Virus record (IMG/VR): IMGVR_UViG_3300046171_000138
DNA length: 64,000 nt
Direction: 5' to 3' (one strand)
Source: a virus
The translations under genes and the position numbers were made by a program. A model generated the notes under the pieces. That model had not been told where the DNA came from, did not search any database, and saw nothing but the letters and a program-made list of their open reading frames with translations. Below are positions 30,893-42,803 of this stretch, piece after piece (the stretch's first letter is position 1; each line of letters opens with the position of its first letter).

Positions 30893-30921
30893 TTGACAGC
30901 ACCTAGTCACTGTGCTAATAT
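30893..30921 (+). promoter_or_regulatory. sigma70-type promoter for the tmRNA/tRNA cluster
   Basis: TTGACA-17-TAATAT with extended TG. Confidence 0.75.
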
Positions 30922-30928
30922 ATACAGT

Positions 30929-31180
30929 GTTCAAGAGGTTGCAAAGTCTGTTGTTCTGGACAGGGGTTCGATTCCCCTCACTTCCATTGATGGGGGTGCC
31001 ATGGTTTCGACAGGGCAAAAAGGTTGTAATTGTTGACGGGACAAAACCCTAGATGCAAACACATCTGATTCCGCTGCGAATAATATCGTAGCATTCTCCC
31101 GCAGCACCGTTGCTGCCTGAATGGGAGATGGGGGATAGGTTATCCTTCTAATCCAATAACTCTTGGGGGTGTGATGCCCC
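30929..31180 (+). ncRNA. ssrA: two-piece (circularly permuted) tmRNA
   Basis: T-arm AGGGG-TTCGATT-CCCCT (30962-30978) and acceptor 3' strand CACTTCC-A precede the 5' strand GGGGGTG (30992-30998), giving G3:U70; tag ORF ANNIVAFSRSTVAA-TGA at 31076-31120; cross-piece helix CAGGGCAA/TTGTTCTG; ends approximate. Confidence 0.9.
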
Positions 31181-31188
31181 TTCTTTAT

Positions 31189-31265
31189 GGGCAAGTAGCT
31201 CAGCTGGATAGAGCCACGCACTTCTAATGCGTTGGTCGGGGGTTCGAGTCCCTCCTTGCCTGCCA
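31189..31265 (+). tRNA. trnR: tRNA-Arg(TCT), CCA encoded
   Basis: GGGCAAG/CTTGCCT acceptor, ACGCA-CTTCTAA-TGCGT anticodon arm, GGTTCGAGTCC. Confidence 0.93.
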
Positions 31266-31337
31266 GGGCGATTAGCGCAGCGGTAGCGCACCTCCTTTAC
31301 ACGGAGAGGGTCGGGGGTTCGATTCCCTCATCGCCCA
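31266..31337 (+). tRNA. trnV: tRNA-Val(TAC), CCA not encoded
   Basis: GGGCGAT/ATCGCCC acceptor, anticodon loop TTTACAC, GGTTCGATTCC. Confidence 0.9.
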
Positions 31338-33104: not shown

Positions 33105-33245
33105 ACTCTAAACTTATCCTGGTGGAGCTGGGTAGACTTATCTGCTGGTCCAGTCTCGGTAAGACTATAAACTAGCCCTGGTGCGGGTGTTGCTGCCGCC
33201 TGGTTTCCAATTTCCAGTTAAAGAATTGGTGGCGAGCCTGTGCAT
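33103..33245 (+). ncRNA. manA-like structured RNA motif
   Basis: GC-rich intergenic block ending CCGCCTGGTTTCC...CCAGTTAAAGAATTGGTGGCGAGCCTG, matching my recollection of the cyanophage manA motif; not verified by CM search. Confidence 0.55.
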
Positions 33246-35406: not shown

Positions 35407-35454
35407 CATCGTTAAGTTAAGAAACCAAAACATTTCTTAACGGTTCGTAACACC

Positions 35455-35560
35455 CCTAAAACCGAGACCTATAGGGTGTATAAACAACGTCTCTAATACC
35501 TCTGCCTAGGGCGCAGAGGAAATAGTAACTCCACCATTCCCTGATGGTCTTACTTTCTTT
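35455..35560 (+). ncRNA. PhotoRC-II-like cis-regulatory RNA in the psbA leader
   Basis: CCGAGAC...GTCTCT, CCTCTGC/GCAGAGG hairpin, ACCAT-TCCCTG-ATGGT; directly 5' of psbA. Confidence 0.7.
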
Positions 35561-41927: not shown

Positions 41928-41956
41928 TTGACACGCCTAAATACATATGGTATAAT
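41928..41956 (+). promoter_or_regulatory. consensus sigma70 promoter with embedded late promoter
   Basis: TTGACA-17-TATAAT; CTAAATA 41937-41943. Confidence 0.85.
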
Positions 41957-41962
41957 AATACC

Positions 41963-42005
41963 ATCGTTCATCCGAGAGATCGGACGCAAGTAAGTCGCGG
42001 AACGG
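41963..42005 (+). ncRNA. glutamine-II (Downstream-peptide)-like riboswitch aptamer 1
   Basis: CGTTCA-TCCGA-GAGA-TCGGA-CGCAAGTAAGTCGCG-GAACGG. Confidence 0.7.
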
Positions 42006-42007
42006 AG

Positions 42008-42194
42008 CCGTTCATCCCATGCTAGAAATATTATTCTATAGCACACTAACTTGTTCTCAAACTGATGCTATCATGCTGAAGATTCAGAACAATGACAATC
42101 TTCACCACCAAGTTAAGATTGAGTTGGTTGATACCCTGAAGGATTCAGCACCTGAATGTCAATGGTATTGGGACGCAAACGACTAAAGGAACGG
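42008..42194 (+). ncRNA. second glutamine-II-like aptamer with an ORF inserted in its P2 loop
   Basis: 5' half CCGTTCATCCC 42008-42018; 3' half GGGACGCAAACGACTAAAGGAACGG 42170-42194. Confidence 0.55.
42019..42186 (+). CDS. 55-aa ORF nested in aptamer 2 (not in ORF track)
   Basis: MLEILFYSTLTCSQTDAIMLKIQNNDNLHHQVKIELVDTLKDSAPECQWYWDAND. Confidence 0.65.
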   Translation: MLEILFYSTLTCSQTDAIMLKIQNNDNLHHQVKIELVDTLKDSAPECQWYWDAND

Positions 42195-42226
42195 ATTAAA
42201 ATCCAACTACTTTAGGAGTACCTACA

Positions 42227-42394
42227 ATGAACACCCTAACTATCATCAAGAAGCAGATCCAGAAAGCAGCTGCACTTCACGACGCACAGATCAGTCACGC
42301 CGCATATCGTGGTGTTGAGTATGATACACGTTGTGTGGAAAGCACAGAGTCCCATGGGACTTTCTGCTACCGTGGACGTACCTATACCAAATAA
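42227..42394 (+). CDS. DUF4278-family small protein, 55 aa (not in ORF track)
   Basis: SD AGGAG; two YRG-x-x-Y motifs (YRGVEY, YRGRTY). Confidence 0.8.
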   Translation: MNTLTIIKKQIQKAAALHDAQISHAAYRGVEYDTRCVESTESHGTFCYRGRTYTK

Positions 42395-42444
42395 GGTATA
42401 GATCTTCTGAAGATCAGACCATAAAAGTTAATACTTTTGTGTTA

Positions 42445-42474
42445 AAAGAGAGGTATTTATACCTCTCTTTTTTT
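42445..42474 (+). terminator. terminator after the DUF4278 gene; stem/loop reads TATAAATA on the minus strand
   Basis: AAAGAGAGGTAT-TT-ATACCTCTCTTT plus T run. Confidence 0.8.
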
Positions 42475-42587
42475 ATTTGTAACCAATGTTACCGTTTAAA
42501 GACATATATACAGTAGCGAAAATAGGTGAAAAAAGTGAACCCAGAACCCTCTTACATTATGAGCCCAAACGAACACGAGGTGGAAAC

Positions 42588-42761
42588 ATGCATGCACTAT
42601 TATCACGCAATCAGTTAGGTGAATGGAAACATTTTCAACACACAATTGATGATCTCGAATCTGAAAATGAAAAACTAGATGACTACTATGAATGCCTAAT
42701 AGAATGTGATGCTCTCGATCAATCACAATGTAAACGAATCTGTAAACAAATTTTGACTTAA
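42588..42761 (+). CDS. small Cys-containing hypothetical protein
   Basis: GAGGTG SD; MHALLSRNQL...YYECLIEC...CKRICKQIL. Confidence 0.7.
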   Translation: MHALLSRNQLGEWKHFQHTIDDLESENEKLDDYYECLIECDALDQSQCKRICKQILT

Positions 42762-42768
42762 TTTTTTC

Positions 42769-42803
42769 GAGGGGTTGCGACCCCTCTTTTTTTATGCTAT
42801 AAT
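42769..42803 (+). terminator. terminator with -35 TTGCGA in its loop and TATAAT 17 nt later
   Basis: GAGGGG-TTGCGA-CCCCTC-T run; TATAAT 42798-42803. Confidence 0.75.

Follow-up and report, generated by a model that had tools for sequence, protein, structure and literature searches.

Riboswitch aptamers are usually regarded as compact, non-coding domains. Glutamine riboswitches of both types, glutamine-I and glutamine-II, have been shown experimentally to activate DUF4278 genes, including through the cyanobacterial gifB leader and the DUF4278 leaders of Prochlorococcus (Klahn 2018, PMC6212724), and the two classes bind glutamine in a near-identical site made up of C1:G40, G2:C39+G18, C19:G41 and the G35 triple (Huang et al. 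2019, PMC6698751). In this site, C1:G40 and G2:C39 belong to the CGUUC/GAACG helix and G18 to the linking strand CGC; a linking strand of the J2/3 type occupies the major groove of P1 in the solved glutamine riboswitches (PMC6698751). In the model put forward for the gifB leader, the aptamer's 3' edge contributes a sequence that pairs with the ribosome-binding site (RBS), and this pairing melts when glutamine binds (PMC6212724). Tandem glutamine units have been counted as 'pseudo-cooperative' doublets (Weinberg 2010, PMC2864571; Sherlock et al. 2022, PMC9481103, the latter with 157 doublets and four triplets). Rfam annotation has already revealed glutamine riboswitches in T4-like cyanophages (PMC9602691, PMC9964418). 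Here we analyzed the leader of a short DUF4278 gene, together with that gene (positions 41963–42394), in a 64,000-nucleotide (nt) stretch of viral DNA (IMG/VR record IMGVR_UViG_3300046171_000138; hereafter the window). We conclude, with a probability of about 80%, that this leader is a composite glutamine riboswitch in which two aptamer cores, one nested in the other, share a single P3, and in which a gene nested within the sensor and the downstream DUF4278 gene are joined in one switch. The promoter, the parts of the leader, its two genes and their terminator all lie on the plus strand of the window.

The element resembles glutamine-I (RF01739), as known from the Synechocystis gifB/IF17 leader (PMC6212724) and from the structure of Ren et al. 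2015 (via PMC6698751), in having P1 (CGUUC/GAACG), P2, a J2/3 ending in AAGUA, P3 and a J3/1 of the GAAG type, and like the gifB leader it forms the 5' leader of a DUF4278 gene. It departs from glutamine-I in that a second complete junction, which has a P1 hairpin and a P2 of its own, takes the place of the loop that would close P3; the inner P2 holds a coding gene of ~165 nt, as the outer P2 can in relatives; the predicted long-range pair is C...G, not G...C; and phage copies that bear an open reading frame (ORF) fall under the Rfam cut-off or are missed altogether. With glutamine-II (RF01704, PMC6698751) it shares the core motifs CGUUCA, (A/G)CGCA and GGAACGG and the C:G long-range pair, and glutamine-II precedes short YRG/DUF4278 peptides in the marine picocyanobacteria that are the hosts of these phages. 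Glutamine-II is, however, an H-type pseudoknot, whereas the phage helices are fully nested by covariation, and the RF01704 model scored only 20.9 bits at 41963–42008 against a gathering threshold (GA) of 33. Like the published glutamine tandems, ORF-less phage copies carry two glutamine-type cores within ~100 nt; unlike those tandems, which are treated as separate aptamers or riboswitches, the phage units share P3 and the expression platform, exchange P1 strands and are only 2–4 nt apart. Many of the 'tandems' published from marine metagenomes could be copies of this nested element. As in the tandem glycine riboswitch, a single gene is controlled by a physically connected pair of like aptamers, but the glycine aptamers stand side by side and make tertiary contacts, whereas in the phage a shared Watson-Crick helix links the cores coaxially, one inside the other. 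The literature searched, which did not cover Ames & Breaker 2011, contains no description of shared-P3 nested wiring or of genes inside P2 loops, and a scan of genome contigs for the junction of strands 2 and 3 (see below) gave chance matches only among the matches listed.

The leader begins with CGUUC-A, a GAGA-capped hairpin, CGCAAGUA, AGUCG, CG, GAACG, the loop GAGC, CGUUC, A and UCCC-AUG; beyond the nested ORF it continues with UGGGA, CGCAAA, CGACU with the stop codon UAA, AAAG, GAACG, a GGAU/AUCC hairpin and CUUUAGGAG, which includes the Shine-Dalgarno sequence (SD) at 42214–42218, ahead of the ATG at 42227. An earlier interpretation of the window from its letters alone (the sequence-only reading) had pointed out repeated halves, and these are present: CGTTCATCC occurs at 41965–41973 and again at 42009–42017, and the 3' halves lie at 41982–42005 (GGACGCAAGTAAGTCGCGGAACGG) and 42170–42194 (GGGACGCAAACGACTAAAGGAACGG). 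With the usual sequences, the four P1 strands could pair equally well in tandem (1–2, 3–4) or nested (1–4, 2–3), so we sought natural variants. Relatives were collected from IMG/VR by protein and by IUPAC patterns that excluded the common base at chosen positions, and 226 unique elements were parsed for strand covariation. Only three sets of P1 strands 1–4 were found: CGUUC/GAACG/CGUUC/GAACG in 155 elements, CGUUC/CAACG/CGUUG/GAACG in 65 and CGUUU/CAACG/CGUUG/AAACG in six. Both strand changes are compensatory for 2–3 and 1–4 pairing and produce mismatches under tandem pairing. P3 also varies with compensation, over 165–191 nt (AGUCG/CGACU, AAUCG/CGAUU, AUUCG/CGAAU, AAUCU/AGAUU and GGACGG/CCGCCC), and has G·U intermediates in AGUCG/CGAUU and, within the GGACGG lineage, in CCGCCU.

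Judged by this covariation, the outer core forms a three-way junction of the regular glutamine-I kind, in which AAGUA and AAAG are the E-loop strands. The distal end of P3 carries another three-way junction, whose strands follow in the same order and whose P1 is the hairpin at 42000–42013. The overall fold is fully nested, without a pseudoknot. The sequence-only reading had instead taken AGTCG (41993–41997) and CGACT (42180–42184) for kissing loops that join two tandem aptamers into a heterodimer, by analogy with the glutamine-II pseudoknot at this segment. The two segments are complementary and the helix covaries, as that reading had asked to be checked, yet it is the ordinary P3 of a glutamine-I fold; the pseudoknot analogy fails because of this and because the structure is fully nested, in keeping with the low RF01704 score. 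The tandem, kissing fold was rejected on the P1 covariation, which pairs strand 1 with strand 4 and strand 2 with strand 3.

The two topologies were compared cell by cell on 27 diverse ORF-bearing elements, window included, aligned with MAFFT. The nested structure paired 540 of 540 cells, with three pairs changing on both sides, and its covariation score (0.116, vs 0.061 for shuffles) was reached by none of 500 shuffles; slid controls paired 26–50% of cells. Under the tandem structure, 94.8% of cells were paired, vs 100% for the nested one, and 14 of the 27 rows were unpaired in each P1. Run without an input structure, RNAalifold recovered both P1 helices (the outer one and the inner hairpin), the first P2 and the P2 that spans the ORF.

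A few records of relatives depart from this layout. Synechococcus phage S-8S53 (our record L083, 460–760) has a seemingly single ORF-bearing core directly behind the promoter, keeps CGACU without an upstream AGUCG partner and contains a run of N inside the ORF. Three others (L321, L341 and L397) have CGUUU and CAACG strands, and their sequence breaks off past strand 2 (..CAACGGAGCGTAAGCAATTAG..), as if the inner core had been lost by deletion or decay.

In the outer core, the P1 strand CGUUC at 41965–41969 pairs with GAACG at 42189–42193. This helix is CGUUC/GAACG in 220 elements and CGUUU/AAACG in six, with zero exceptions, and all 27 alignment rows are paired, the last pair being CG in 25 and UA in two. 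Directly after CGUUC-A follows the outer-core P2 (UCCGA-GAGA-UCGGA, 41971–41984), the compact GAGA-capped hairpin of the first aptamer that the sequence-only reading had recognized; in relatives its stem varies with compensation, one pair being GC in 12 rows, CG in 10 and AU in three. The outer-core J2/3, CGCAAGUA (41985–41992), fits the RF01739 consensus CGGAAGUA. By comparison with the solved site (PMC6698751), we infer that the phage J2/3 maps onto the G18 triple and C19:G41, and C41987 is the predicted long-range partner of G42194. The invariant CGC at 41985–41987 is also able to pair with the invariant GCG at 41997–41999, which RNAalifold favours over P3; in the ligand-free state, this alternative pairing may tie up the linking strand. 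P3 itself joins AGUCG (41993–41997) to CGACU (42180–42184), with GC in 21 rows, AU in three and GU in three at its second pair, and the outer core is completed by J3/1, AAAG at 42185–42188, an E-loop strand that aligns to GAAG of RF01739 and is AAAG or GAAG in every element.

The inner core starts with its P1 hairpin (42000–42013), formed by GAACG (42000–42004), the loop GAGC (42005–42008) and CGUUC (42009–42013). Again there are zero exceptions among the 226 elements (GAACG/CGUUC in 155, CAACG/CGUUG in 71); the varying pair is CG in 14 and GC in 13 of the 27 rows, the hairpin also appears in the minimum free energy (MFE) structure, and its loop, the linker between the units, measures 3–5 nt and never less than 3 nt. 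The inner P2 pairs UCCCA (42015–42019), whose A opens the nested ATG, with UGGGA (42169–42173). It is paired in 27/27 alignment rows and reads UCCCA/UGGGA in 93 ORF-bearing elements; UCCUA with xAGGA, a C-G to U-A change, is found in 21 unique elements, in addition to G·U variants and one mismatch. The inner-core J2/3 that follows (CGCAAA, 42174–42179) keeps the form CGCA[ACU]A in every element, whether or not an ORF is present, and its C42176 is, by the same comparison, the predicted long-range partner of G42005.

The Rfam models gave a result that depends on the nested ORF. At gathering thresholds, there was no match at the leader, and at relaxed thresholds RF01739 (Glutamine) aligned to 41963–42008 with 27.7 bits against a GA of 35; the check with both glutamine models that the sequence-only reading had suggested produced matches, all of them sub-threshold. 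Phage ACG-2014f has the same leader without any ORF, and here RF01739 reached 37.9 bits, over the GA, in a single alignment covering both units. In that alignment, P1 is formed by the first CGUUC and the last GAACG, P2 by the first hairpin, and P3 by AGU../..ACU, with 41 nt inserted in the P3 loop; the insert has the strand order of an aptamer core, namely a GAACG-loop-CGUUC hairpin, A, a second P2 and CGCAAA. Among the ORF-bearing copies, S-MbCM7 scored 30.4 bits and S-TIM4 gave no match. The window falls below the RF01739 cut-off because of the ~190-nt insertion in P3, and the nested ORF architecture explains the under-counting of phage glutamine riboswitches in family scans. The assignment of this region as a glutamine-riboswitch-type leader of a phage DUF4278 gene is supported.

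We then considered the expression platform. A candidate OFF-state hairpin (42183–42215) would pair the anti-SD sequence CUAAAG (42183–42188) with CUUUAG (42210–42215), overlapping the SD AGGAG at 42214–42218, and encloses the small GGAU/AUCC helix (42193–42204), which covaries. The MFE structure of 41963–42240 (−69.9 kcal/mol) contains both the inner hairpin and the anti-SD hairpin. In relatives, CUAAAG is always matched by CUUUAG, never giving an A·C pair, and CUGAAG is matched by CUUCAG or, with a G·U pair, by CUUUAG. The helix pairs 88.6% of cells in the 27-row alignment, with AU 8, GU 8 and GC 7 at the variable pair, and two of 500 shuffles attained the observed number of pairs changed on both sides. 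The TACT/AGTA mini-stem that the sequence-only reading had placed over the SD was discarded: its four pairs are complete in only 35 of 108 unique relatives, without compensation, and it is the CUAAAG/CUUUAG helix that is conserved and covarying instead. Glutamine-I-type ON behaviour is expected because the RBS has a potential pairing partner close to the aptamer's 3' side. By analogy, the phage expression platform fits the gifB ON-switch model, and the anti-SD helix, as far as its pairing pattern tells, probably makes glutamine an ON signal for the DUF4278 gene. In a subset of relatives (L002 at ~975–1010, L026, L067, L214, L218 and L177), the aptamer is separated from the DUF4278 SD by an additional conserved insert, ACGGAUC-hairpin-GAGAAGGUU, which is absent from the window.

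The gene enclosed by the inner P2 (42019–42186, ATG...TAA, 55 codons) belongs to phrog_504, a family of unknown function (E = 5e-25), and has 131 unique homologues of 53–64 amino acids (aa). Computed without the RNA-constrained last six codons, dN/dS was 0.19–0.20, vs 0.82 and 2.7 in the shifted frames, and differences per codon position followed the order 3>1>2. By these substitution patterns, the nested ORF is a real gene under purifying selection, which bears out the claim of a whole ORF inside an aptamer stem-loop. The further claim that its ATG and stop sit at the stem boundaries was half right: A42019 forms the fifth pair of the inner P2, and in 127 of 131 ORFs the ATG is spaced 4 nt from the junction A that precedes it, whereas the stop UAA (42184–42186) lies 11 nt beyond the P2 3' strand, within P3 and J3/1; it falls inside the anti-SD strand 42183–42188, which is made up of the end of P3 and J3/1. 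The nested stop falls within the aptamer core in all ORFs, and all end in ..DA(N/H/Y/K)(D/E)-stop because they read through the P2 3' strand, J2/3 and P3. An AlphaFold model of the nested protein is a two-helix hairpin (pLDDT 80) with Cys12 and Cys47, and Pfam, NCBIfam, PDB Foldseek and the ESM Atlas returned nothing usable about its function. RNAalifold also placed a small hairpin inside the ORF at 42127–42149 (GUUGAUACC..GGAUUCAGC), with UA 11, AU 8 and CG 2 at one pair, which could help to join the ends of the long P2 loop or could be a codon-level coincidence.

Both P2 positions can carry genes. In a census of the 226 elements, a pattern-driven sample, the outer/inner P2 combination was compact/ORF in 124, compact/compact in 78, ORF/ORF in 19 and ORF/compact in five. 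The family ..HWMEHTDPxCF sits in the outer P2 of some phages and the inner P2 of others, and profile comparison joined three of four nested-ORF families (96.8%, 91.8% and 79% probability), the PYGWHMSC family not being joined; pairwise BLAST between the two S-TIM4 nested proteins gave no significance. The inner hairpin loop starts with GAG in 87 of 143 elements with an inner-P2 ORF vs one of 83 compact ones, a difference confounded by lineage, and a loop that starts with GAG places GGAG 11–12 nt upstream of the nested ATG.

The proposed regulated gene (42227–42394, 55 aa) encodes a DUF4278/YRG-repeat peptide of phrog_545 (E = 1e-34). Its own match to Pfam PF14105 (E = 7e-4, 20.4 bits) is weak and under the curated cut-off of 25.3; of 30 diverse homologues that follow the same element, 26 match PF14105 (E up to 0.01; best 1.8e-13). 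A search for longer homologues of the peptide brought up nothing but long gene predictions from very short contigs, which are likely artefacts, and gave no link to IF17. The sequence-only reading saw in the peptide a possible glutamine synthetase (GS) inhibitor. Short DUF4278 proteins such as those of Prochlorococcus lack the C-terminal, IF7-like region through which IF17 is known to contact GS (Klahn 2018, PMC6212724).

These features suggest how the element might work. Without glutamine, CUAAAG (42183–42188) would pair with CUUUAG at the DUF4278 SD and translation would be off; glutamine would lock P3, the E-loop and the outer P1, free the SD and turn the switch on. The nested start codon would form the top pair of the inner P2, and the stop codon would lie in P3 and J3/1 within the anti-SD strand. 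Because start and stop codons lie in the helices of the sensor, ribosomes on the nested gene and the folded sensor should be mutually exclusive: glutamine should reduce translation of the nested gene, and ribosomes translating it should in turn interfere with sensing and may expose the SD downstream. Nitrogen sensing and nested-gene translation probably compete on one RNA. By sequence, both cores keep CGUUC, the A-CGC-A linking strand and G-GAACG-G, which comprise all contact nucleotides of the solved site (PMC6698751), and the natural P1 variation falls at C5:G36, the pair most distant from the ligand. Since both cores keep the glutamine-contacting nucleotides, the RNA probably binds two glutamines, and two binding sites are plausible.

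Several observations weigh against this composite, two-core switch. The RF01739 match in the window is a mis-wired local alignment below threshold, the sampling of relatives was pattern-driven and non-random, and RNAalifold did not predict P3 from the 27-row alignment, pairing CGC 41985–41987 with GCG 41997–41999 instead. Enforcing the nested aptamer gave −61.6 vs −69.9 kcal/mol for the MFE structure, a cost of 8 kcal/mol that is expected for a switch and is no proof of one. The anti-SD helix has few pairs, and lineage confounds its covariation; nor is that covariation free of other constraint, because the variable base is the middle base of the nested stop codon (UAA/UGA). A terminating ribosome should open the SD as well, which blurs a simple ON-switch logic. 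Finally, the inner junction lacks an E-loop (J2/3 CGCAAA, J3/1 CG), whereas the outer core keeps its E-loop strands, and the inner junction may be a scaffold, not a second binding site.

The main competitor in topology consists of two independent, side-by-side aptamers dimerised through AGUCG/CGACU as a kissing or glutamine-II-like pseudoknot helix. In the commonest sequences the four P1 strands are interchangeable and give the same number of pairs, the tandem fold without P3 has a similar energy (−61.1 vs −61.6 kcal/mol), its first CGUUC/GAACG pair could form first during transcription, and glutamine riboswitches in tandem have been reported (PMC2864571, PMC9481103). However, 71 of the 226 unique elements are compensatory for nested pairing only and would leave C·C/G·G or U·C/G·A mismatches in tandem, 14 of the 27 aligned rows are mismatched in both tandem P1 helices, the linker always has the 3 nt or more that a hairpin loop needs, and the Rfam model itself picks the nested alignment. 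We consider side-by-side aptamers improbable.

It is likewise unlikely, if slightly less so, that the outer core alone senses glutamine and that the inner junction with its ORF stem is a passive insertion into the P3 loop, a 'gene slot' without coupling. Compact ORF-less elements do score as ordinary glutamine-I aptamers, the inner junction has no E-loop, and the spread of ORFs over the outer P2 only (5 of 226), the inner only (124), both (19) or neither (78) suggests permissive sites. Against such passivity, CGUUCA, ACGCA and GGAACGG are no less strictly conserved in the inner core than in the outer, and this extends to ORF-less elements; the nested ATG is fixed relative to the junction A and the stop always falls in the aptamer core; and related small-protein families fill these loops across lineages. 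The idea that the 3' half is conserved only as code for the C-terminus of the nested protein (WDAND), its aptamer likeness being incidental, draws on the overlap of the last six nested codons with GGGACGCAAACGACUAA. It has next to no probability and was ruled out by ORF-less relatives: the sequence is conserved without an ORF in ACG-2014f and in most of the 78 lineage-B elements, conservation extends beyond the stop codon, and bases of the 3' half covary with partners 165–225 nt upstream.

The genomic setting is that of a T4-like marine cyanomyovirus, which is the source of the window. By blastn, the leader region matches 415 cyanophage records, nearly all Synechococcus myoviruses, so that the arrangement recurs well beyond what chance would give; the S-MbCM7 annotation lists the two ORFs as hypothetical proteins, one 'similar to T4-GC_430' and the other 'similar to T4-GC_937'. 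An Rfam scan of the window found a PhotoRC-II RNA (35438–35533, 78.4 bits) and a wcaG RNA (33149–33243, 62.8 bits), both exceeding their cut-offs, and, within 30912–31337, a cyanobacterial-type tmRNA (cyano_tmRNA 122 bits, the permuted tmRNA model also matching with 88.8 bits) followed by two tRNAs, at 31189–31262 and 31266–31337. Upstream of the leader lies a sigma-70-type promoter (41928–41956: TTGACA, 17 nt, TGnTATAAT; a 12/12 consensus match with an extended −10), which predicts a transcript start at ~41963, 1–2 nt before the aptamer CGUUC at 41965; relatives keep the −10 box ~7 nt upstream of CGTTC. An intrinsic terminator at 42444–42471, a 12-bp stem followed by a T run, closes a transcript of ~510 nt, which is an early two-gene mini-operon headed by the predicted glutamine-sensing RNA. 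The next small ORF (42486–42761) is phrog_665; its true start is probably an internal ATG near 42588, because the profile matches only from residue 35. It has its own terminator at 42769–42786, and a promoter-like site then follows at 42775–42803.

A more far-reaching interpretation, which we regard as possible and hold only tentatively, is that the P2 loops are dedicated 'gene slots' in a reciprocal, ribosome-coupled switch. At low glutamine the sensor would be unfolded and the small Cys-pair proteins inside it would be made; at high glutamine a two-site sensor would fold, probably cooperatively, burying the start codons and turning DUF4278 on, with the ribosome that terminates in the anti-SD strand as a second input. 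If true, this would be the first natural riboswitch whose aptamer holds a gene that it represses while activating the gene behind it. Because a conserved aptamer helix spans a probably translated gene, ligand sensing and translation would use the same nucleotides, an arrangement found in hundreds of abundant ocean phages, and the element offers a natural, probably two-site, helix-sharing aptamer usable for tests of cooperativity. Our analysis suggests that cyanophages read the glutamine pool of the host, and with it nitrogen status, early in infection, likely in order to adjust how much is made of an IF17-like peptide and of small proteins of unknown function.

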